Source: Escherichia phage tunus
Reading direction: 5' to 3' (one strand)
Sequence record: NC_049816.1
Length of the DNA: 51,111 nucleotides
A program made the position numbers and the translations under genes. Positions 3,219-47,213 of this stretch are shown in pieces. How positions within the stretch are numbered: the stretch's first letter is position 1; every line of letters starts with the position of its first letter. The notes below the pieces were generated by a model. That model did no database searches. It was not told where the DNA came from and saw only the letters and a program-made list of their open reading frames with translations.

Positions 3219-6200
3219 ACCAGCTTCCGGTAATCCTTCCGACTTCAACCCTCAATACTCCGTTTGCATCTTTTACCTTCAATCCCTCATTGGTGAATTT
3301 AGTAGCTCCTTCTCCTGGCGTTGATCCGTAATTCTCAAAGATTCCGTTTTTATCAAGCCTCCATCCTTGCTGGTTTTGAACAAAGTTGTTTGACTGAATC
3401 ACATTACCAATCATCGCATTAGTGATTGAACCGTTCTTAACCAAAAGACTATTAATGAAAACCTGATTATTCTCAACCACGAAAGGCAAAGTAAAAGTCC
3501 CTCCAGTAGAGCTAGTCATAATGGCGAACCTGTTAGCATCAAACAAAATTTGCGAGATAAGGCCGGATGAACCCTGCGAAAGCTGCATCACCATTCCTGC
3601 GCTGTATTGCTGGCCTTTGTAAGTAAGGCCAAGTTTCATAGCGTATTTAGCGCCAACTGAATCAACGCTCGCCCAAGAATCCAACTTTTCAACCAATGCA
3701 GATTCAACGTCGCCAAATCGTGCTGTTAATGCCTGGTCAGCCTGAACCCTTGCCTCTGTCTCATTGGCGATCGCCTGTTTCACTTCTGAGATGTTAGCCT
3801 CGACTTCTGTTTTGATAACTCCGTCAAGGTCGTTTATCTCTTTCGTGAACTTAGCGTCAAGCTGCTGAACGGCCTGAGCGCGCGCTTCTGACTCGTTAGT
3901 GATTGTCTGCCTTACATCGCTAATGCTTGCAGAAGTATCCTTGCGCACGCCGTCGATTTCTTTTGTGAATTTAGAATCAAGCTGCTGAATTTGAGTCGCT
4001 CGCGTCTCTGATTCAGTGGCAATTGCCTCCTGCACTGTCTTGATGCTTGATGTTATCTCGCCATCAATTGATGCCCTTAACTCTTCGATTTGAGTTACGC
4101 GCGCTTCTGTTTCATTGGCGATAAGCTCAAGAGCATGACCATATTCAGCCTTGCGCTTTCCGTTTTGCACTCGCGTCCACTTCACATCTGCATCATTTGC
4201 CAACGCGTTCTGTATGATTGATTGTGCCTGGTCTTTGATTTTATTGGCGCTGTCTATGGCGTTCTCTTTGATTTCTTGACCAGCTTCTGTATCAAAAATC
4301 TTGTCCAGAATGTCGCCCAAAACAGATTCAACATCATCTGACGCCATACCGCGAACAAAGTCAGTCCAACTGGAAACGTTGCCTATTCTGTCAACGCTGC
4401 GGATTCTATACCATACAACTTGCCCCGCTGGTAACGTGCTATGCCAATACTCATATTGAGGATATGGAATCAGCGTAAGCAGACTTGAGTTTTCAACCGT
4501 TCCGTCTGGCGATTGGTGAAGCTCAATGTAAGCCGTATCGCCTGATCCTTCCGGCATACCCCATTTGACACGAATGCCAAAAACTTCATTATCAGAAGCC
4601 GTAAGATTAATCGGCGCTCCTGGCTCGCCAACTTTACCTGTCAGAGTGGCGGTTGCAATCTTTGACCACGGGGAAGCGTTACCGCTTGCAGAAACGGATC
4701 TCACCCTTACTTGGTAGTTGCCTGAATAAATCCCTTCTACCTCTATCTCTTTGTTAGCGGTCTGCGGCGTATTCAGCCAGTTACCATCACCTTTTCGCCA
4801 CTGCATTTCATAAAGCGATGCGTAAGGAACCTTATCCCATGAAACAACCATAGTCTCAACGCTAACGCCCTGCACGACGCGAGAATAAGATGAGATCTTA
4901 ACGTTCTCAGGCGCTGCCATCACGTCAGGCTGAACAATTGAAGTCGGCCTGTCATCAATGTTTACGCCATAATCAATCTCGTCGTATTTGTTCGGATCGT
5001 ACTCCACAGCCGTGATTGAATAGGTAAACTCGTTTTCGTCATCACCCTTGCTGATAGTTGTCACAACGTATTGCTGCAACGCAAGATCAGTACGGTCAAT
5101 CGCAAAAACAGTATCAGGCTTAACATCAAAACCAAATCCAATATTTAACTCTATGGTTTTTCCGTCTGCGCTAACCTTTGAGATCGTGCGCTTAACTGGC
5201 TTGCCGTCCGGCTTGTTGATGATAATAAAATCACCAGGGCGAGCATCAACCTTAAACGGAACGAAAACCTGCAATCCTGAAACTTCCATTACTCGGCCCG
5301 ATAGGTTTAACGTTAGGTTGCTACTCTGAAAATTATCAGCGATAGCAATAACATCACCTATTGATGGAATCATCCCCTCTAGTCCGGTAGCAAAGTTTAC
5401 AGTAGTGCTTCTAAGGTTTGTTTTCAAAACCCACCGACCGCGACGATTCGCTTCGCTCCTGCGTGTGCACCCGATCGCTGTAATGCTTGTTGGATTGTAT
5501 CCAAATCGTAATGCCGCCTCAGTATCAAAAACACCCTCTACGTCCTGCTGATACATGTTTTGTTCGTCGTCAAACGTCACGTTACACTGCGTGTACATGC
5601 TTTTTTCGCTTGCGGTTGTGTACTGAAAATCACCGTTGATGACGTTTTCATTAGTAAACACGTATGATGGATCGCGTGGCTTATCAATCACGATTGATAA
5701 GCTCTCACCATTCCAAAAACTCATTCCGCGAAAGATTGAGCAAATGTCACGGATTAGCTGATAAGCCTCAACTTGATTCTGAATCACCACATCGCATAGG
5801 TAGCGAGGCTCAGTACCGCCCTTACCGTCTGGAACTTTCTGATCACAGTAAACGCCCGCCTCGTATAAGCTCCACTTGTCGATCTGTATTCCTAACTCTC
5901 GCTGATCAAGTCCATAACGCTGATTTGTCACCAGATCATAAAGAACCCAAGCGGGATTATTTGACCACGCTTTTTTAAAAGTCCCATCCCATGACCCGTG
6001 ATATTCTCTTGATATTGGATCATAGTTGCTTGGCACATTAATAATCTTCCATTTCTTTTTTATAGAAATGTTAGGGATTTGCGTAGGAAACAATTCACTG
6101 TCAAATTCTACGAATACAAGGCCAGTCAGAGGATAACGGAATTTTGCATCAACAACCTCAGCGTAACTTTGCAGCTTGATTTTATCAGTTACCTTTGAAG

Positions 6201-21090: not shown

Positions 21091-21118
21091 TGATTATATA
21101 ACTTTTTAGCAATTAGTG

Positions 21119-31910: not shown

Positions 31911-31939
31911 ATTATAAAAGCTATTTGGTGCGTGTCAAT
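31911..31939 (-). promoter_or_regulatory. sigma70-type early promoter TTGACA-N17-TATAAT (leftward)
   Basis: Consensus hexamers; resembles the promoter at 1554-1581. Confidence 0.55.
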
Positions 31940-32374
31940 GTTTTTGTTGTATTCAAAACGTTACCAATATCGAAAAACTACAAAATCATGCGCAAGTTAT
32001 TGATTTCGCGGCTGTTATTTTTCTGTTCACTCTGTTAACGCAATCCGCCGGAAAAAGTATATATACATATGCAATCCGCCGCGCGCGCAACTATCCATAT
32101 ATACCCACACACAACCACACCATAACCAACAAAAAGCACTGTAACAGTGAGAACAAAAAGAAAACATTATAGATATATATAAATAAATAATCTTTATTTT
32201 CAATGTATTATAGAGGATTTTCTTTGTTTTTTCCGTTTTCGCTACACCGGAAAACCGCGCGGAAACACGCCGCCTGAAATCGGTAACAGGGGTGAACAAA
32301 AGACAACAACCACTGACAGCCAGGCGGAAAAGTGAGGCAAGAGGGGAAGGTTTCACTATCTCCCCTGCAACCAA

Positions 32375-32463
32375 TGATTAAACGTGATTACTTTTCTCAT
32401 CAAATTTGCAAAGGCAATCATCATTTTGACGTGATTTGATTACGAATGATTACTTTTGATTAT
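32375..32463. repeat. Phased GATTA(C) direct repeats (iteron-like)
   Basis: Five TGATTA/GATTAC copies at about 32376, 32386, 32438, 32448, 32458, the last three exactly 10 bp apart, just upstream of the rightward promoter module. Confidence 0.45.
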
Positions 32464-32491
32464 TTCGATCGCAATCCTGGCGATAACCGTC

Positions 32492-32537
32492 AAATAGCAC
32501 TTTTTGTTAAAACTCAGGCCACCTGATCGGGTACATT
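32492..32537 (+). promoter_or_regulatory. Phage promoter module (box + 19-bp spacer + TACATT)
   Basis: Exact box; transcript would start near the conserved CATCGAAACGAACC. Confidence 0.5.
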
Positions 32538-32577
32538 ACACACATCGAAACGAACCGCACTTACTGAGGACCAAACA

Positions 32578-32880
32578 ATGATTAACATGAACCTGTTCAC
32601 CGCTAAAGACCACGAGAATATGGCAGCACTGGCTGACCTGTTCGAAACAGCAGAAATGGCTGAACTGTTCATGACTGAGCATGAATTCCAGGACGGCATC
32701 AGCAATGCCATTGAAACAAATTTTGGCGACGCTCGCGTTACTGGTGCAATGTTTGCAAATATCGCGCGTAAATTCTTCCAGGCTTACCGCGACGCTCGCC
32801 ATGTAAAGGGCACGTTTGGATCTGCGAAAGACACCGCTGAAACTATCCGCGCTTACATTGAGCGCCACGCAAAACAATAA
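32578..32880 (+). CDS. Hypothetical acidic early protein (first gene of rightward early unit)
   Basis: 100-aa ORF with weak Shine-Dalgarno GAGGAC; Asp/Glu-rich N-terminal half. Confidence 0.5.
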   Translation: MINMNLFTAKDHENMAALADLFETAEMAELFMTEHEFQDGISNAIETNFGDARVTGAMFANIARKFFQAYRDARHVKGTFGSAKDTAETIRAYIERHAKQ

Positions 32881-35165: not shown

Positions 35166-35386
35166 GTCAAGACGGATTTTTTGAGCGCCTTCAAATGGCA
35201 GAAGATGCCGGACTAAATAAAGAGGCGGCGCTTGAAGTGGCATATAAAATTAAGACTCTTGATGAGGCTTTAGGTGATATGGATATGGATCTTGAATCAA
35301 GCGCAATATTTGCAGATCCCACTATGATTGTTAATGATTGTGGATGCGATTTCGATCCTGGTTGTCCGCGCTGTTTTCCGTTTTGA
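35162..35386 (+). CDS. Acidic protein with C-terminal Cys4 zinc-ribbon-like motif
   Basis: 74 aa, Asp/Glu-rich; C-terminal CGCDFDPGCPRC. Confidence 0.45.
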   Translation: MSQDGFFERLQMAEDAGLNKEAALEVAYKIKTLDEALGDMDMDLESSAIFADPTMIVNDCGCDFDPGCPRCFPF

Positions 35387-35396
35387 GGTAATGACG

Positions 35397-36107
35397 ATGT
35401 ATAAAGGTTTAATATTCTCCCTATTTGATGGATCTGGTAAAGCCGTTAAAGATTGGGCTGATAATGGCTATAAGTGCATTTGCTTTAATGCTGACGGCGG
35501 CGATCACGGTGATTACCAGTCAGTGCGCATACAGCATGAGAATATCGAATACGTTAACGTCTGGATTGATGATGCTTTTTATGTTAAGGCAATCAATAAT
35601 GAGTGGGGCAATCCTGATTTTATTATGGCCTTCCCACCATGCACCGACCTTGCAAATAGCGGATCTCGCCATTGGGCTAAAAAGCGCCTTAAAAATCCAT
35701 CTTTCCAGGATGAGGCCGCCGACACTTGCAGAATCGCGGCTGATATAGCTGATTATTTCGGTGTTCCATACATGATCGAAAATCCGGTTGGCAAGTTGTC
35801 AACGTTATGGCGAAAGCCTGATTATACGTTCCATCCGTGCGATTACGCTAGCTATCTGCCGGAAGATGATAAACATCCCGACTTCCCTGATATTATTCCG
35901 GCGCGGGATCGCTATTTTAAGAAAACATGCCTCTGGACTGGCAACGGCTTTGTTATTCCTCCACGCGCTTTAATCCTGCCGAAAGAGAAAGACAAAGATA
36001 ATCCAGGCTGGGCCAAAACTGGCGGCAATTCATCGCGCACAAAGATGATCCGCTCCCTCACTCCGCGCGGCTTTGCTCGCGCCGTCTTTGAGTCAAACTC
36101 AAAATAG
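35397..36107 (+). CDS. DNA cytosine-C5 methyltransferase-like protein (short, core motifs only)
   Basis: ATG at 35397 with RBS GAGGT; motif I-like FSLFDGSG, motif IV-like FPPC, motif VI-like ENPVGKL in canonical order and spacing; no obvious target-recognition domain. Confidence 0.55.
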   Translation: MYKGLIFSLFDGSGKAVKDWADNGYKCICFNADGGDHGDYQSVRIQHENIEYVNVWIDDAFYVKAINNEWGNPDFIMAFPPCTDLANSGSRHWAKKRLKNPSFQDEAADTCRIAADIADYFGVPYMIENPVGKLSTLWRKPDYTFHPCDYASYLPEDDKHPDFPDIIPARDRYFKKTCLWTGNGFVIPPRALILPKEKDKDNPGWAKTGGNSSRTKMIRSLTPRGFARAVFESNSK

Positions 36108-36176: not shown

Positions 36177-36563
36177 ATGAATGTTATCTGTAATGAAACC
36201 AACGTATTGATGAAAGGCCGATTTAAAACGGTTTATCAGAAGATTGCAGGAAGTAATGATGTGATCGAGGTGGAAGAATTCCAGGTTAAGACGCTTGTTA
36301 AGGGTAGCCGCTGGCTTCCAGCAAACCGAGATGATTACCGCGTCATTAACACAAAAACCGTTCTTTGCACGTTTGTAGATCATAACATGCCGTGCAAAAA
36401 GCACTTTAAGCAGGGAAAGCGATACCAGATCGAGAAAGGGCGACCGCTTGGAAGCGTTGCGGGTTATGTTTTTGATGAGTGCGGCGACCGCTGGAACCTG
36501 TACCGTGAAGAGGTCGGATTCTCTGCTGGCGGCTGTTATCTTTTTGAGGGTAAATATCTGTGA
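36177..36563 (+). CDS. Hypothetical protein
   Basis: 128 aa, RBS AAGGAG. Confidence 0.45.
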   Translation: MNVICNETNVLMKGRFKTVYQKIAGSNDVIEVEEFQVKTLVKGSRWLPANRDDYRVINTKTVLCTFVDHNMPCKKHFKQGKRYQIEKGRPLGSVAGYVFDECGDRWNLYREEVGFSAGGCYLFEGKYL

Positions 36564-36781
36564 TAAACAGTGAAAACCGTTACAAAGTAACGAATTCTAC
36601 CACAAAGACTTTCAAGCCTGGCGATATAGTCAGGCCCATCAAAAAAACGGCGGTAGGTTGGCTGATTGGTTTTTCATATCATAAGGCTCTTTACTTTACG
36701 TTTAAGGATGGGATCATGGGGGAATGCTATAGCGACCGCCATCCTGATCGACTTCTGGTTGCAATAGAGCGGATCAAATAG
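36560..36781 (+). CDS. Hypothetical protein
   Basis: 73 aa, start overlaps upstream stop. Confidence 0.4.
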   Translation: MINSENRYKVTNSTTKTFKPGDIVRPIKKTAVGWLIGFSYHKALYFTFKDGIMGECYSDRHPDRLLVAIERIK

Positions 36782-36821
36782 CACTTTTTGACAAAACGGG
36801 GTAGTATTGGGCCGTTAAAAT
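36776..36821 (+). promoter_or_regulatory. Phage promoter module (variant box TTGACAAAA + 19-bp spacer + TAAAAT)
   Basis: Box variant AAATAGCACTTTTTGACAAAA; hairpin GGGCCGttaaaatttaCGGCCC. Confidence 0.45.
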
Positions 36822-36849
36822 TTACGGCCCACAAAGGAGAAGCTAACGA

Positions 36850-38430
36850 ATGTTTTCATTAGAAACGAACAAATTAACTCCACAGCAAATAATCGCTATG
36901 GCTGAAAGCCAGAACCTTTCACCAGTTCGCGTATCAATTCAGGCTAACGGCTATCGCCAGTCGTCCAGCTTTTGGGGCGACGTAAAGGATGTGAATAGCG
37001 GTCACGATCGCTACCCCGTTATTTCTCTTGGTAATGATATTGATGTTGTCGGCAAGTTATCACGCAGCATTGCGCGATCCGTTCAATTCCCTGAATCATC
37101 GGCTTACATGCACTTTATCGGCTGCATTTCTGCCGCTATGCTTGGACGCTTTACGGTTGACTATCACGGAACCGATCAGCCGACTGCGCTTTACGTCGTT
37201 ACAAGCCAGCCGCCGTCAACTGGTAAATCTGCGATCAACAGCATGGCTATTGCTCCGATGATTGCGGAAGTTGAGAAGATCAACGAGAAACGCCGCAAGG
37301 AAAGAAAGAAAATACAGGCAAAGCTGGCAGGTCTTGCAAAGGAGATGAAAAGCGAAAGATCCGGCGCTGATATGGAATCTCTATACCAGGAAAAAGAGGA
37401 TCTGGAGGAAAAGCTGGAAAAAATGTGTGATATAACTTTTCCTGTTTCAGATACAACTCCAGAAGGCTTGGCGAAAATCAACAACAAGCAAGGTAACTTT
37501 GCCGTAATTTCTGATGAAGCAACAAGTATTAACAGTCTGTTAGGTTTGACCTATGCAAATAGCGAAAGGAAGACTAACAGTGAGTTAGTGCTTAAGGCGT
37601 GGGATAATGGTCACGTATCAATTGCCCGTGCTAATGCTGACAATAATATGAGTTTTCGCGCGCTTGGATGTATGAGCGTTATAGCCCAGGATGAAACGAT
37701 AAGCGGAATCATGGACGCTGGATCGCGAGGCATCGGTGTTAGTGAGCGTTTTTTGTTGGTCCGCGAGGAATCATTCTTAGGCCGTCGCTCATTCATTGAT
37801 GAAAATGGTGATTCTACCTATGAGGCGGTGGATTCTGAATTGAAAGCCCAATATTATCAATTGGTGCATAACATCATGAGCGAATCAAATATATCGCTGA
37901 AAATAAGCCGTTCAGCTATGCGAGTGCTCAACATTGCTCGCCAGGATATGGAGCCGCATCTTGCAGACGGAGGAAAGTATTCTCATACAATGTTACGCGG
38001 TGCGCTGGGTAAAATGGATAAACAGGTGATCAGGCTTGCTTCCGTCCTGCATGTTATCCGTAACTGGTTTAATCCTGCCGGATACCCGCAGAAGTCGAAA
38101 GAGATCGACGTGGAAACAATGCAAGAGGCGTTGATCATGTTTCAGGAATTGAGCAAAACATACATTAGCGCCGCCAATGCTTCTGGTTATGCTGGTGATG
38201 ATGCTGAAATGGGTAAATTGATTGAATTGATCACGAGGCACGGCAAGGCTAACAAAGGGATCCTGAATATTCGCGCCCTGTACGAATCAGCGAGAAAGGT
38301 AAAACCTTTCGTTGGTCAGGCTGGCGTAATGAAAAGGATAGAAGGGCACTTACTGCCAATGCTGGAAGAAAGAAATTATGTTTGTGTGATTAATGGTGTT
38401 ATTTTTGTCAATCCAATACTGCTGGGATGA
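36850..38430 (+). CDS. P-loop NTPase with SF3-helicase/AAA-like Walker motifs (function unknown)
   Basis: 526 aa, RBS AAAGGAGA; Walker A VTSQPPSTGKSA and Walker B FAVISDEATS about 110 aa apart; Lys/Glu-rich coiled segment between them. Confidence 0.6.
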   Translation: MFSLETNKLTPQQIIAMAESQNLSPVRVSIQANGYRQSSSFWGDVKDVNSGHDRYPVISLGNDIDVVGKLSRSIARSVQFPESSAYMHFIGCISAAMLGRFTVDYHGTDQPTALYVVTSQPPSTGKSAINSMAIAPMIAEVEKINEKRRKERKKIQAKLAGLAKEMKSERSGADMESLYQEKEDLEEKLEKMCDITFPVSDTTPEGLAKINNKQGNFAVISDEATSINSLLGLTYANSERKTNSELVLKAWDNGHVSIARANADNNMSFRALGCMSVIAQDETISGIMDAGSRGIGVSERFLLVREESFLGRRSFIDENGDSTYEAVDSELKAQYYQLVHNIMSESNISLKISRSAMRVLNIARQDMEPHLADGGKYSHTMLRGALGKMDKQVIRLASVLHVIRNWFNPAGYPQKSKEIDVETMQEALIMFQELSKTYISAANASGYAGDDAEMGKLIELITRHGKANKGILNIRALYESARKVKPFVGQAGVMKRIEGHLLPMLEERNYVCVINGVIFVNPILLG

Positions 38431-38822
38431 TTATGTTTTTGCTTGATCTGTATAAATGGTGTGAGTCATACGATTGGTTTAACAGGCAGCACATAGCCAA
38501 ATTTATCTATCAGCATAGAGAATGTGAGCGGCTCGCACGGGCCGCCGGACTTACGCCGCGAATGTTCGCCAGCCTTGCATCTAAGGAATTTTGCGCAAGA
38601 ATGATGACGGCTGGTTATATAGATGGAGTCTGCGGAAAATACTGGTCCAAAGGATCGTCAAAGCGGCCTTTCGGATTCGAATTGTATAGCCTGGATGGTA
38701 TGCGCAACGACTGGATCAGGGATATGGCTAGAATAGGGGAGATGGGCGATGATGAATTGTTCCAGGCAAAAGCTAATAGACAAGATCTTGAAGCACTGCG
38801 CCGTAAATTCAATATCACATGA
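38427..38822 (+). CDS. Hypothetical protein
   Basis: 131 aa, ATGA-coupled to the NTPase gene. Confidence 0.45.
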   Translation: MIMFLLDLYKWCESYDWFNRQHIAKFIYQHRECERLARAAGLTPRMFASLASKEFCARMMTAGYIDGVCGKYWSKGSSKRPFGFELYSLDGMRNDWIRDMARIGEMGDDELFQAKANRQDLEALRRKFNIT

Positions 38823-42442: not shown

Positions 42443-43168
42443 TTAACTCCGTTTGCGTGCTCGGCGTTCGGTAACAGAAGGACAAATATCGCTGATCTTA
42501 ACGTATCGCGTTTTCTGCTCTTCGCCTTCTTTAAGTTTACGCATGACAAAAATCACGCTCCCCTTATTGTTGCCCTGTACAGGCTCGCCAGTCAATCCAG
42601 ACACAAAGGCGATTCTTCCGGTGCGGGAATATTCCACTCCCCCCTCTTCGTAAACCTCGCCAGTGATCCAGATGATTTCAGCCGCGTTTTTCTGCGCCTC
42701 ATAAAACCATGCTGTAGAGTTGTCGGATGGCAACAAAACATCAATTTGGTTGTTGTGCTCCATTTGCTCAATTGCTTTCTTGATAAATGGAGTTGGGTTG
42801 CTGTACGGCGGGTTAAGCCATACGTGCTTGTTGCTACCCCACCAACGCTTTAAGCAGTTTGTTTCCTTGCTATAGAACTTCTCGCAAACTGCGTTTTCCT
42901 GGCTTGCTGCCGCGTCGAGATCGTATTCGCCAAATTCTGATTCCATCCACTCCACGATCTCTTGAGGTGTGCTCCACATATCGCGCACAACGTCCGGCGT
43001 AGTGCTTCCAGCGTATCGGTTGCCGCTTACCTTATAATATTGATTTGGCTTTACTGCCTGGTAATGGCCTCCAGTTGCAAGGGCATTCCCTATAAATGTT
43101 TCTCTCTCCAACTGCTCAAAGCTAACGAATGCGTCATGGGTGTCTTTATCTAAAATATCTTTAGCCAT
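42443..43168 (-). CDS. dam: DNA N6-adenine methyltransferase (phage Dam-like)
   Basis: 241 aa, RBS GGAGAAA; motifs DLDAAAS and NPPYS. Confidence 0.75.
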   Translation of the reverse strand: MAKDILDKDTHDAFVSFEQLERETFIGNALATGGHYQAVKPNQYYKVSGNRYAGSTTPDVVRDMWSTPQEIVEWMESEFGEYDLDAAASQENAVCEKFYSKETNCLKRWWGSNKHVWLNPPYSNPTPFIKKAIEQMEHNNQIDVLLPSDNSTAWFYEAQKNAAEIIWITGEVYEEGGVEYSRTGRIAFVSGLTGEPVQGNNKGSVIFVMRKLKEGEEQKTRYVKISDICPSVTERRARKRS

Positions 43169-43253: not shown

Positions 43254-43667
43254 AAGCATGTATTCAATAGCCAACTTAAACTGATTAAATCCGTAGGCGA
43301 CCGCAGCGAATCCTCCTAAGCTGCGAACTCGACGCAAAAAAGCCTTTTGTTCATCGCTGACTGGTGATGCTTTACCCTTGCCTGATTTATTCACTCGTTT
43401 GATCTCAATCGCTGCAAATGGGTATTTTCCGTTTAAACCAATCAGGATGATGAAATCGCTTACACCCTTAACCAAGCCGGACTGCTGATCAATCATCGCC
43501 GTTGCTTTAGACTTCTCATTCTCGTTTACCGTATGCCACGCCAGCAAGTAAGGATGAGTATAAGTCAACCACTGAAAGCTATCTATCTGGTGATTAACTT
43601 CCTTTCTAGTGTCGGTTGGATCTCTTTCGTAAAACTCAAGATAATCTCCTTTATCAGTTATAGCCAT
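43248..43667 (-). CDS. VRR-NUC-type PD-(D/E)XK nuclease (putative)
   Basis: 139 aa; DFIIL...AIEIK-type motif; translationally coupled to the helicase. Confidence 0.55.
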   Translation of the reverse strand: MAITDKGDYLEFYERDPTDTRKEVNHQIDSFQWLTYTHPYLLAWHTVNENEKSKATAMIDQQSGLVKGVSDFIILIGLNGKYPFAAIEIKRVNKSGKGKASPVSDEQKAFLRRVRSLGGFAAVAYGFNQFKLAIEYMLK

Positions 43668-45664
43668 TAAACAAACTCCCGTTTTGCAATGTTATCCTCA
43701 CCTTTGCCGTTTTTGCGATGCGTTACGCGTACAGGCGGCATGATGTGATGAGCGTATGACATTATTTTACGCGCATTTCTATAGCTCGCCACCATACCAG
43801 CAATCTTGCGATCCGGTATGTGCTGCAATGCTATTTTTCTCCATATCGTCCTGCAAATGTTGCTTTCTGACTCAGGGAAAAATCTTTCGTATGCCTTGAA
43901 CGTGTCGCCGTTGGCCTCAAGCTCATAGCAAAAAATAATTCCTTTCTGGTTTTTCGTCATATCAACGCGGAAAGATTTAACGTTGCACCAATCGTTTTTG
44001 GTGTAGTGCTTACCGCTTAACTTCTCGTTAGGATCGACAAGAGAAATATCGCAACAACGGCATACTCTCGCCACTACGTCGTTTTTTGTTCCGCAACCGC
44101 GCTTGATTATCTTTTTCGTTCTCGGATCTACCTGGTCCTCGCAAATTCTGTAAGTCCAAAAATGCTCGCATCTCTTCCCGTTATCGTCTACGTGCATACA
44201 TCGGCGAGCGTAAAAGCTGTTTAGCGTTCCACATATCGGACAAGTCTTAGGCTCTTTCCCGTTTGTAAATCTCTTTTGGAATTGCGCTTGCTCAAGGATT
44301 GGATCGAAATACAAATCCCCTAACTCATCCATAGTACCTGCAAAATCCAATACAAGATGATCTTTTTTCTTGAATCCCTGATCAATGTGCCATTGCTTAA
44401 GCAGTCGCATGCCGCGCCCCAAAAGCTGGATAAGCAATGTTAGAGATCCTATCTTTCTCAGTATTACCGAAGTATCCCAAAACGGAACGTTAACGCCAGT
44501 GGTAAGCGCCTGTACCTGGAAGATGTATTTTACTTTTCCCTCGTATGCCTCCCTCAGCCACTCTTTACGCTGATTATCTCCAGTCTTGCCAGTTATGATC
44601 CTGTATTCAACGCCTGGCGGCAGTGCGGCGGCGGCCTCCTTGCAGTGCCTTTCCCCTGCGCATGTAACTAAAACTCCGTTCCTGTCTTTGCATATCTCAT
44701 GGACTTTAGCCATGATTTTCTGTGTCATTGTTGCGTCTTGATGGATCTTTTCTTCCATCTTGCGCAATGTTTTAGCGTCAAAGTCTGAAACGCCATCCTC
44801 GCTACTGGCTTCGAACTCTGAAAGGTCATAACCCAGGTCGCCTACGTCGCCGAAGTTTGTTGGCACTACCGAACCGAATTTGATTAAGTAGTTTGTGTCT
44901 ATGTTAGTCACCTGCTCACGCCAGAATCCCTTTTTGTTCTTATCTTCAACCAGTATTGGAACCACGCCGCGAAATTCAGATCCAGTCATACCGAATATTC
45001 GCAATTCGTGCCCGTATGCCTCGCGACACCTGCGCATCATTTCCATGATTATTACGGTGTACTGTGTGCGTCCTGTTCCGAACATTGGATCGCCATTGGA
45101 ATCAAATTGCTGTTCTTCTCCAATCAGTACTGGCAAATCCTTCTTAGTGGTCATCTGCTGGTAAGATTCATTATTTTCTATCGCGTCCGCGAGATCCTCC
45201 CAATCCACCTGGTGACATTCATCAATACCGATAACGTGCGGAACATAATCACCTAACGACTTAAACAATCCGTTTACTACAGTGCCCTCAGAACCGACCA
45301 CGATCGGAAAGTATGCGCTTTTTGTTTTCAGTCCGGCGCAATAGATTGAGTTTGGCACTCCAAGATTGCTGATCTCTTCCGAATCCTGATCAACAATTTC
45401 AGCCTGGCGAGCAAGGACCATCATTTTCAATCCCATTTTTCGGCATTGCGCCGCAACCATCGCAAACATCAATGTTTTGCCAGCCGACACAGAAGCCTTA
45501 ACAAAGAAAGGATGCTCATAGTTTTTCATGCGCTTTGCGATCTCGGCATACGCAACGCACTGATAAGGATAAGGCACTATATTGCCAACCGTGAATCGCT
45601 CTTGGATGCTTTTTATTACTGCCTCGCCTAACGCTGATATTTGTTTTTCGATATTTGGAATCAT
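43667..45664 (-). CDS. SF2 DNA helicase with C-terminal zinc-finger region
   Basis: 665 aa; motif I VSAGKTL, motif II IDECH; several CxxC pairs in C-terminal third. Confidence 0.8.
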   Translation of the reverse strand: MIPNIEKQISALGEAVIKSIQERFTVGNIVPYPYQCVAYAEIAKRMKNYEHPFFVKASVSAGKTLMFAMVAAQCRKMGLKMMVLARQAEIVDQDSEEISNLGVPNSIYCAGLKTKSAYFPIVVGSEGTVVNGLFKSLGDYVPHVIGIDECHQVDWEDLADAIENNESYQQMTTKKDLPVLIGEEQQFDSNGDPMFGTGRTQYTVIIMEMMRRCREAYGHELRIFGMTGSEFRGVVPILVEDKNKKGFWREQVTNIDTNYLIKFGSVVPTNFGDVGDLGYDLSEFEASSEDGVSDFDAKTLRKMEEKIHQDATMTQKIMAKVHEICKDRNGVLVTCAGERHCKEAAAALPPGVEYRIITGKTGDNQRKEWLREAYEGKVKYIFQVQALTTGVNVPFWDTSVILRKIGSLTLLIQLLGRGMRLLKQWHIDQGFKKKDHLVLDFAGTMDELGDLYFDPILEQAQFQKRFTNGKEPKTCPICGTLNSFYARRCMHVDDNGKRCEHFWTYRICEDQVDPRTKKIIKRGCGTKNDVVARVCRCCDISLVDPNEKLSGKHYTKNDWCNVKSFRVDMTKNQKGIIFCYELEANGDTFKAYERFFPESESNICRTIWRKIALQHIPDRKIAGMVASYRNARKIMSYAHHIMPPVRVTHRKNGKGEDNIAKREFV

Positions 45665-45751: not shown

Positions 45752-46228
45752 ATGAAAGATGCACGAATTGCGGTGTCTACGGGTGAGATCGACAAGCGCA
45801 CTATTAACGGTAACAACGGAACGCGACGAGGTAAAGACAAAAAGCCACGAAAACACCGAACCGGATTTCTTATCCTGCGAGATGAGGTAAAAGCAAGCCT
45901 GAAATCTCGCTTGGATATTCTGATCGAGTATTATGGCGGTGTTCCTGCTATGGCTCGACGTCTACGCGTATCTCAGCAAGTCGTTAACCAATGGCGAAAG
46001 CGTGGTATGATTTCAGCCGCTGGAGCACAAAAGGTGCATAACGACTACAAATATAATGGATGCAAAGGATACCGCGCATCATTTTGTCGTCCAGATCTGC
46101 GGTTTGATTCTAACGGTAAGCCTCTTACTACCCGTTGCGACAAATACGAGATGTTGCGCGTAGTCAAAAATTCAGACTACGAACCAGGCGGACGATTCTA
46201 CAAAGGTGATAACAGCACAAATAGCTAA
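45752..46228 (+). CDS. HTH DNA-binding protein (Cro/CI-like helix-turn-helix)
   Basis: 158 aa, RBS GAGGTG; HTH segment MARRLRVSQQVVNQWRKRGMIS; basic N-terminus. Confidence 0.55.
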   Translation: MKDARIAVSTGEIDKRTINGNNGTRRGKDKKPRKHRTGFLILRDEVKASLKSRLDILIEYYGGVPAMARRLRVSQQVVNQWRKRGMISAAGAQKVHNDYKYNGCKGYRASFCRPDLRFDSNGKPLTTRCDKYEMLRVVKNSDYEPGGRFYKGDNSTNS

Positions 46229-46283
46229 TGATAAGGCTCAGCGAAATGATAATATTTGCTGGGCTTTTTTATTGAGGTTTGCC

Positions 46284-47213
46284 ATGAATACTGAAAACTT
46301 TATGACCTATCAGAAAGAAGATGTTTTGCCATATATGAAGGGGTTATGGCGTGAAGCACTACAAAGCATTTGCGGACTGCATAGCGATGTTTTCAACAAA
46401 AAGCATCAACCTTGCCCACACTGCGGCGGTAAGGATCGTTTTAGATGGACTGATAAGCTAAATGAAGAGGGCGACGGCGGCGCGATCTGCAACGTATGCG
46501 GCAACGACACGGGGATCGGTTGGTTAATGAAATTAACTGGCGAACCTTACAGCGAGGCCATCAACATTTTGGGCCGCTTCCTCGGAAAAGTGCCACAAGA
46601 TTACAGGATCAGAGCAAACAAACGCGCTTCGCGTTCTTCTGGTTACTCGTTCGGGAAACAGGCAAGTCATGAATGTTGCGAAAAAGTGATGGCAAAAACA
46701 TTAAAATTCGATCGCACACCTTTAAGCGTTTATGAGGGGATATATCCGCCGGAAGATTGTCATTATGATTGCGGCGTCAAGGATGGTCGATACATTCACG
46801 CGCTACCTTGTCACCTGGTGCATGATGACGGGCTGGATGATGAAATGTGTAACGTGCTTTTCATTGATGAGGATGGAAAGGATTGGTTTTTAGCTCGCGA
46901 CTACACGCGCGGATCTGTTGTTAAAACAGGTAGCACAGATAAGACGATCTATTTGTGCCTTGATTGGGTTGATTCTCAGCATGTTCATTTATCAACTGGT
47001 CAAGAGGTGTGGGCCTGTTTTACTCCTTCAAATCTTGAAATGGTTGCGCATAGATATAAAGGAGAAAGAAGAATGCGCGTAGTCTGCCGGAAAGATGATC
47101 GTGATGTGATAATCGCGGCAGAGGAAAGAGGGCTTGACATAATTATGCCTGTTAACGATAATTTTAAACAGGGCGTAGAAAGAAAACTCTACAAGCCTGA
47201 ATCACTGCTATAA
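46284..47213 (+). CDS. DNA primase (zinc-ribbon + TOPRIM-like)
   Basis: ATG at 46284 with RBS GAGG; N-terminal CPHCGG...CNVCG zinc ribbon; hairpin with T-run between HTH gene and this start. Confidence 0.65.
   Translation: MNTENFMTYQKEDVLPYMKGLWREALQSICGLHSDVFNKKHQPCPHCGGKDRFRWTDKLNEEGDGGAICNVCGNDTGIGWLMKLTGEPYSEAINILGRFLGKVPQDYRIRANKRASRSSGYSFGKQASHECCEKVMAKTLKFDRTPLSVYEGIYPPEDCHYDCGVKDGRYIHALPCHLVHDDGLDDEMCNVLFIDEDGKDWFLARDYTRGSVVKTGSTDKTIYLCLDWVDSQHVHLSTGQEVWACFTPSNLEMVAHRYKGERRMRVVCRKDDRDVIIAAEERGLDIIMPVNDNFKQGVERKLYKPESLL

Follow-up and report, generated by a model that had tools for sequence, protein, structure and literature searches.

A DUF3987 AAA+ protein with a predicted MCM-like motor is the probable replication-fork helicase of the T1-like Escherichia phage tunus

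We analysed a stretch of 51,111 nucleotides from Escherichia phage tunus (sequence record NC_049816.1), which we call the window as a whole, and in it one gene of the early region, located at positions 36850..38430 on the + strand, starting with ATG and encoding a protein of 526 amino acids (aa; 58.2 kDa). An original prediction, made from the letters of the window, had described this protein as a P-loop NTPase with Walker motifs of the superfamily 3 (SF3) helicase type. The limits of the open reading frame (ORF) in the ORF listing are exactly those of that prediction, and the protein is indeed an AAA+ ATPase of helicase type; its ORF is also, as had been said, the largest of the + strand early block, which extends over about 32.5-39.3 kb. 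A Shine-Dalgarno sequence, AAGGAG, can be read at 36834..36839 (+), 10 nt before the ATG. Further upstream, 54 nt from the start codon, a copy of a phage-wide 20-nt repeat, AATAGCACTTTTTGACAAAA, occupies 36777..36796 (+) and contains a perfect TTGACA. This copy is probably a promoter-associated element, with a putative role. A scan for sigma-70 promoters was uninformative, as it gave 10 matches where 15 were expected.

The DNA of the gene is 99.2-99.8% identical to that of the records of Escherichia phages tunus, SLUR29, swan01, SECphi27, tonn and others; the phages with a near-identical gene (tonn, SECphi27, tunus and so on) belong to the Drexlerviridae, Tempevirinae, Warwickvirus. On these records the gene is labelled 'DNA helicase', 'putative helicase', 'YfiJ' or 'hypothetical protein'. 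A search with tblastn found a homologue in 915 phage records, full-length in 903 of them, and the lysine of Walker A and the glutamate of Walker B are invariant among 144 diverse relatives. Hence, 36850..38430 is a genuine conserved gene and a chance ORF is ruled out.

The protein has a single significant match in Pfam, DUF3987 (PF13148), with an E-value of 3.1e-44 and 152.1 bits where the gathering score is 27 bits; the match joins aa 81-430 to model positions 3-350 of 364. In PHROG, the whole protein matches phrog_2373, 'DNA helicase' (E 1.6e-244), while aa 441-525 also match a separate family, phrog_7327. The search of PDB sequences, which had been proposed together with that of Pfam, gave nothing significant, either with the single protein or with a profile of 25 sequences, and returned coiled-coil noise only. 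Weak similarities to WWC1, OmpH, augmin and JetC all fall at aa ~130-240, mostly on a charged helical insert; it is because this insert forms a helical hairpin that such spurious coiled-coil matches arise. Since the PDB sequence searches gave nothing, a comparison of folds was needed.

We built an AlphaFold2 model from an alignment of 25 homologues sharing 36-87% identity (mean pLDDT 86.1, pTM 0.84) and compared it with the PDB using Foldseek. The top 24 matches were all Mcm2-7 subunits (E 9e-6 to 3e-3), and archaeal MCM was listed too: as modelled, the AAA+ motor is closest in fold to MCM. The SF3 assignment of the original prediction must be given up, for Pfam holds no SF3 family match and the fold matches are to MCM; neither the sequence family nor the fold of SF3 (E1, LTag, Rep, D5, P4 alpha) was recovered. 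SF3 helicases (papillomavirus E1, SV40 large T antigen, adeno-associated virus Rep, P4 alpha, poxvirus D5) resemble this type of protein in being P-loop ring helicases of AAA+ type, in having Walker A and B together with a beta-hairpin pore loop, and in their frequent linkage to primases.

The original prediction had recognised no other domain around the Walker motifs, and here the model brings four additional parts: at the N-terminus a helical domain, then an inserted helical hairpin, an AAA+ lid and, at the C-terminus, a winged helix. The N-terminal domain (36850..37140, +; aa 1-97) is predicted to consist of helices (11-21, 25-33, 36-41, 66-78, 82-97) and loops without any beta strand, so that there is no OB barrel (the oligonucleotide/oligosaccharide-binding fold); its W42 is invariant in the alignment of 25 homologues. 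In relatives the same position is held by the DnaB N-terminal domain, by PriCT-2 or by a DnaG-type primase module, and we consider aa 1-97 a candidate partner- or primase-binding domain. In the motor itself, strand 115-119 runs into the P-loop and strand 217-221 bears Walker B. A charged antiparallel helical hairpin (37231..37425, +; aa 128-192) is inserted after the Walker A helix, with modelled helices at 126-166 and 172-191, and 15 lysines and arginines against 14 aspartates and glutamates in its 65 residues. A beta-hairpin (37603..37689, +; aa 252-279, with strands 252-258 and 267-279 and a tip, aa 257-266, of low pLDDT) precedes strand beta4, at the end of which Q280 takes the sensor-1 position. 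The helical lid region follows (37825..38190, +; aa 326-447; helices 329-343, 354-371, 380-387, 389-405, 421-445), then the C-terminal domain (38191..38427, +; aa 448-526), which is basic (isoelectric point 9.3) and whose module at 450-520 has, in the model, the helix-strand-helix-helix-strand-strand order of a winged helix. The predicted motor of this T1-family protein has an MCM-like (superfamily 6, SF6) fold, to which a lid and, at the C-terminus, a winged helix are joined. It differs from archaeal and eukaryotic MCM by an identity of just 9-17%, by the 65-residue helical-hairpin insert behind the Walker A helix, by a Q instead of an N at the sensor-1 position and by the form of its Walker B.

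To follow individual residues, we used an exhaustive profile search, which returned 6,279 cluster representatives at E <= 1e-3 and 402 at E <= 1e-30, and a wide family alignment of 144 sequences (the query and 143 diverse members), to which the following counts refer. Both motifs on which the original prediction relied are present: PPSTGKS starts at aa 121 and VISDE occupies aa 219-223. The full Walker A or P-loop, QPPSTGKS (37207..37230, +; aa 120-127), has its K126 in all 144 sequences, and Q120 and P121 in 139 each. In the Walker B strand, FAVISDE (37498..37518, +; aa 217-223), E223 is again kept in 144 of 144 and S221 in 135, while position 222 (nt 37513-37515) is D in 56 members, A in 50 and S in 31. 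Because S221 and E223 are kept and D222 is found in only 56 of 144, the Walker B signature of the family is S-x-E and not D-E. This S-x-E is unusual, the aspartate being replaced by alanine or serine in over half of the DUF3987 members.

Outside the Walker motifs, R260, near the tip of the beta-hairpin, is conserved in at least 90% of the sequences, A279 in 133 and Q280 in 143. A SERF motif (37741..37752, +; aa 298-301) stands directly before strand beta5 (301-305): its R300 is found in 144/144 and its E299 in 133/144, and the neighbouring G296 in 144/144. Within the lid, R383-G-x-x-G-K388 (37996..38013, +) keeps K388 in all members, G384 in 135 and R383 in 105. By topology, Q280 at the end of beta4 would be sensor 1, and the hairpin at aa 252-279, which lies where MCM has its pre-sensor-1 hairpin, would be a DNA-binding pore loop. 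By analogy with the 'SRFD' of MCM, R300 is a candidate trans-acting arginine finger, and R383-G-x-x-G-K388 is a candidate sensor 2.

The DUF3987 family was predicted in 2016 to be a replicative helicase of SF6 whose C-terminus carries a winged helix-turn-helix, and one of its members, dns of phage N4, is essential for replication (PMC4889955). The link to MCM is reported by profile-profile search only, for another DUF3987 protein (PMC4889955). More recently, AgaPH, a PriCT-DUF3987 protein of Seonamhaeicola sp. S2-3, was reported to oligomerise and to unwind 5'-tailed and forked DNA with ATP or dATP, in a manner which depends on Walker A and B; it binds its primase-polymerase (PMC11724360, 2025). 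Our protein belongs to the same Pfam family as AgaPH, N4 dns and YfjI of an E. coli prophage, far over the cutoff, and is like them in its Walker A and B and its small C-terminal winged-helix domain; an association with a primase, by fusion or adjacency, is seen among its relatives, but in this window the primase gene lies in another unit. We compared it to AgaPH by way of a protein of like architecture (P0238, PriCT-2 followed by DUF3987); P0238 matches the family profile of our protein with E 1.3e-66 at profile positions 49-509. Unlike AgaPH, the tunus protein does not have a PriCT or primase domain on the same chain, its N-terminus being the 97-residue helical domain, and its primase is of zinc-ribbon type and 7.8 kb off, whereas that of AgaPH is an adjacent AEP primase-polymerase. 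As dozens of phage genome records already contain an identical or near-identical protein labelled helicase, and as the function of the family was predicted in 2016, the core of the assignment is already known. The new points are modest: support from a structure model for a member of the T1 family, residue conservation across the whole family including S-x-E, a second helicase of the genome re-read as RadD-like, and a predicted winged-helix partner gene.

The records which match in the tblastn search are mostly of Klebsiella, Escherichia, Salmonella, Shigella and Citrobacter phages. When the records with the helicase are counted against those with the primase, the numbers come close to each other in the T1-like host groups: 293 vs 315 for Escherichia, 420 vs 469 for Klebsiella, 37 vs 37 for Shigella and 18 vs 19 for Citrobacter. 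In T1 itself, ST9 is a 58% identical orthologue; the next gene there, ST10, has 53% identity with the product of the 131-aa gene that follows the helicase in tunus. For context we also compared distant relatives from other phage genera, at 35-39% identity. In Vibrio phage pYD38-A and Salmonella phage Vi II-E1, the orthologues (35-37% identical) adjoin a primase gene and are also near a superfamily 2 (SF2) helicase and exonuclease VIII. One metagenomic phage contig (L006) has the order DUF3987, DnaG-type zinc-ribbon primase, SF2 helicase and DUF3799 exonuclease, and another (L005) the order DUF3987, SF2 helicase, exonuclease, AAA_24 and SSB (a protein which binds single-stranded DNA). Among larger relatives, the N-terminus is fused to a DnaG zinc ribbon in P0151 (E 2e-143, closer than any other fused relative), to PriCT-2 in P0238 and to the DnaB N-terminal domain in P0180, this last being the domain by which DnaB docks its primase. 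These fusion partners are those of a fork helicase.

Some 20 records named 'Campylobacter phage' (host Campylobacter jejuni) carry the helicase gene of T1-like coliphages; in one of them, MG065685 'Campylobacter phage A112a' (25,343 bp, unannotated), the protein identity is 88%. These records look like mislabelled or contaminant T1-like sequences.

As the original prediction had stated, the genome encodes an SF2 helicase and a primase elsewhere. The primase gene (46206..47213, +) encodes 335 aa with a Zn_Ribbon_Prim domain (PF08273, E 4.9e-15) and matches PHROG 510, 'DNA primase' (E 2.7e-109); it is presumed to be the partner of the DUF3987 helicase. The SF2 helicase (43667..45664, -) has ResIII and Helicase_C domains and is RadD-like: it matches PDB 6jde with E 4.6e-40, RadD being a DNA repair helicase, and the NCBIfam RadD model with E 3.4e-56, although this score is under the equivalog cutoff. 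According to the annotation of tonn, its gene is followed by a VRR-NUC nuclease gene, and the pairing of a RadD-like helicase with VRR-NUC fits recombination or repair better than fork unwinding. What T1-like records call an 'ATP-dependent helicase' would be better named RadD-like. The DUF3987 protein is the sole candidate ring helicase in the genome, and since the SF2 helicase is of a repair type, it is the strongest candidate as primary fork helicase. Of the suggestion that it could be a second replication ATPase, the replication ATPase stands and the word 'second', which takes the SF2 protein for the replication helicase, does not.

From the conserved ATPase residues, the MCM-like predicted fold, the near-universal presence in T1-like phages and the position in a replication and recombination gene block, we infer that the gene quite probably encodes the phage's own ring-shaped replication-fork helicase, a DUF3987 AAA+ protein with an MCM-fold motor, which would be essential, hydrolyse ATP, oligomerise and unwind DNA. 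Six subunits would form a ring, with ATP bound at the subunit interfaces, where K126, E223 and Q280 would act in cis and R300 of the neighbouring subunit in trans. Sequential hydrolysis would then drive the beta-hairpin pore loop (aa 252-279, with R260) along single-stranded DNA and the duplex would be unwound. The separately encoded zinc-ribbon primase would make the primers and the phage SSB would coat the strands. Neither T1 nor phage TLS encodes a DNA polymerase (PMC11447400); as this phage family has none of its own, synthesis would be carried out by the host DNA polymerase III. The least certain step is the placing of the ring on DNA, which the winged helix of the helicase, possibly with the 131-aa winged-helix protein, may achieve without a dedicated loader, as do the Rep helicases of staphylococcal islands (SaPI).

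A number of observations weigh against this reading. At the level of sequence, the MCM family of Pfam (PF00493) gives no match at E <= 1, and the model does not contain the N-terminal OB-fold and zinc-finger domain of MCM. The aspartate of Walker B varies across the family, even though the T1-family query has it, and the functions given to R300, Q280 and the hairpin rest on topology and analogy. The primase gene is about 7.8 kb away from the helicase gene and in a separate transcription unit. Scans for repeats and tandem repeats, over 31.8-39.4 kb and over the whole window, found no iterons or origin-like repeats adjoining the helicase gene, of the sort known for SaPI Rep and Cch2, which weakens the part of a self-loading initiator; they picked up instead the 20-nt repeat that is spread over the phage genome, and a cluster of TGATT located 4.4 kb upstream of the helicase gene. 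In the searchable literature, we found no experiments on the T1-family protein or an orthologue. Last, in the region 4410-5294 of the record of Klebsiella phage KL (Webervirus, NC_049838), the DUF3987 gene is reduced to its last 93 codons, the 5' 80% being replaced by about 550 bp with an N-terminal fragment of the large terminase on the opposite strand. As a natural knockout, KL is a weak case: because an opposite-strand terminase fragment replaces the missing part, the record is probably rearranged or misassembled.

The same genes can be read another way, in which the protein is a motor of recombination or repair, a ring translocase for branch migration or for recombination-dependent replication in concatemer making, on the model of ComM and MCM8/9, with the phage RecE/Erf, the RadD-like helicase and VRR-NUC as its partners. 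The gene context is rich in recombination genes. However, primase modules and the DnaB N-terminal domain occur as fusions in relatives, primase genes adjoin the gene in others, dns, the N4 member of the family, is essential to replication, and there is no other candidate ring helicase in a genome whose SF2 helicase is already of the RadD-like repair type. We consider this recombination role unlikely. Another possibility is an ATPase which binds the origin, as an initiator or loader in the manner of Orc1/Cdc6 or DnaC, marks or opens it and recruits the host DnaB, but does not travel with the fork. Orc and Cdc6 do align with the model, but over just ~80-100 residues, as expected if only the winged helix is matched, and a member of the family unwinds DNA, so that this role is quite unlikely.

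The original prediction had also offered an accessory role, and had itself named clear homology to a well-characterised replication protein, conserved in all relatives, as the finding that would speak against it; this is essentially what we observe. A role outside the replication machinery, as an accessory NTPase in anti-defence, superinfection exclusion or host takeover, could be suggested by the early operon, which is crowded with small genes of unknown function; one of these, a 128-aa gene located two positions upstream, probably determines the sensitivity of SECphi27 to Mokosh type I. But such a role is very unlikely given that PADLOC yields no significant match (the sole similarity is to the JetC coiled coil, E 0.0079, with no passing stretch), that the NCBIfam search likewise gave nothing for defence or anti-defence, that the gene is full-length in 903 of the 915 matching records when accessory genes of this kind are typically patchy, that it is kept at 35-39% identity across phage genera, in replication modules with primase and SF2 helicase, and that its catalytic motifs and MCM-like fold suit a DNA motor.

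Returning to the fork helicase, we must consider its direction of movement. AgaPH runs 5'->3', which is the sole polarity measured in the DUF3987 family (PMC11724360), whereas the fold leads one to expect 3'->5': the characterised MCM-branch helicases of bacterial mobile elements, which are among the closest known systems (BcMCM of a B. cereus prophage, Cch, a DUF927 protein of SCCmec, Cch2 and the self-loading SaPI Reps), all run 3'->5'. We tentatively suggest, as a possibility that we hold to be doubtful, that the T1-family helicase may be an MCM-fold ring which runs 5'->3' on the lagging strand as a stand-in for bacterial DnaB made from the 'archaeal/eukaryotic' motor, with a primase of zinc-ribbon/TOPRIM type docked via its N-terminal domain, self-loaded via two winged-helix modules (one of its own, the other of the 131-aa protein), and driving the host Pol III holoenzyme. 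A DnaB-like role on the lagging strand would fit what fused relatives carry, the DnaB N-terminal domain or a DnaG-type zinc-ribbon module. If this were true, AAA+ ring helicases could no longer be said to move 3'->5' as a rule, and one of the oldest model phages would have a hybrid replisome. Our literature searches found nothing usable on the genetics of T1 (amber genes 1 and 2, the need for host dna genes) or on escape mutants in the helicase gene. Genes 1 and 2 of T1 are reportedly DNA-synthesis-negative (Figurski and Christensen, in 1974); as their relation to ST9 could not be established here, we did not use them as evidence.

For annotation, 'DUF3987/MCM-like (SF6) replicative helicase' fits this gene, and not SF3 helicase, 'YfjI' or hypothetical protein. 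T1-like phages, which are very common among coliphages and Klebsiella phages and are used in therapy and in defence-system screens, are predicted to replicate with three components: a helicase of MCM fold, a primase of zinc-ribbon type and the polymerase of the host. Two questions arise, that of polarity and that of how a ring could be loaded without a recognisable loader or origin.

The gene which follows the helicase may bear on the second question. It encodes 131 aa (38427..38822, +), overlaps the helicase stop codon by ATGA, is translationally coupled and has a second in-frame ATG at 38433. Its product is predicted to combine a winged-helix domain (aa 1-82), which is basic, with an acidic tail that is disordered and in which D108, E110, L111 and F112 (D108-x-E110-L111-F112) are invariant. 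Homologues were found only among T1-like phage sequences, T1 ST10 included, and the label 'YdbL' given to the gene in related records is a mis-annotation. We regard this protein as a candidate helicase partner, origin binder or regulator.

The 20-nt motif, AATAGCACTTTTTGTTAAAA, of which one copy precedes the helicase gene, has 19 sites in the window with at most 3 mismatches, against 0.01 expected. They are found on the + strand at 1950, 12728, 16478, 32493, 32880, 34185, 36103, 36777 and 38939, and on the - strand at 21104, 25322, 28127, 29330, 30668, 31131, 42184, 43233, 45722 and 47284; most copies have the orientation of the neighbouring genes. When five copies of the early region are aligned, a variable hairpin-like stretch comes after each of them, as does a -10-like hexamer. 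In phage TLS, a 21-nt direct repeat, aaATAGCACnnnTTGnTAAAA, has been described at 21 sites, ~76 nt upstream of start codons (PMC11447400). The motif of tunus matches it and appears by sequence to be the same element, with putative roles as promoter, UP element, enhancer or stoperator.

Between the divergent - and + gene blocks, a non-coding stretch of ~660 bp (31913-32578) contains an AT-rich segment at ~32150-32215 (over 32000-32199, the GC content is 0.355) and, at 32375-32465, clustered TGATT(A/T) repeats, with 6 copies in 100 bp where 200 shuffles gave at most 4. No clearly equivalent TGATT cluster is seen in T1. This stretch is a candidate operator or replication origin.

Upstream of the helicase, the 128-aa ORF mentioned above (36177-36563, +) belongs to PHROG 2684, has no Pfam match and corresponds to gp13 of SECphi27 (128 aa); it is the only 128-aa ORF of the window that starts at its first start codon, and its C-terminal 72 residues are 62% identical to T1 ST7. 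Before it, the ORF at 35328-36107 (+) matches PHROG 757, 'DNA methyltransferase' (E 4e-85), and has the FPPC motif typical of cytosine-C5 methyltransferases, with no Pfam match at E <= 0.01. Its TTG start is probably too far upstream, since shorter versions are annotated in tonn (774 nt) and in SECphi27 (711 nt). A separate Dam-like methyltransferase is encoded at 42443..43168 (-).

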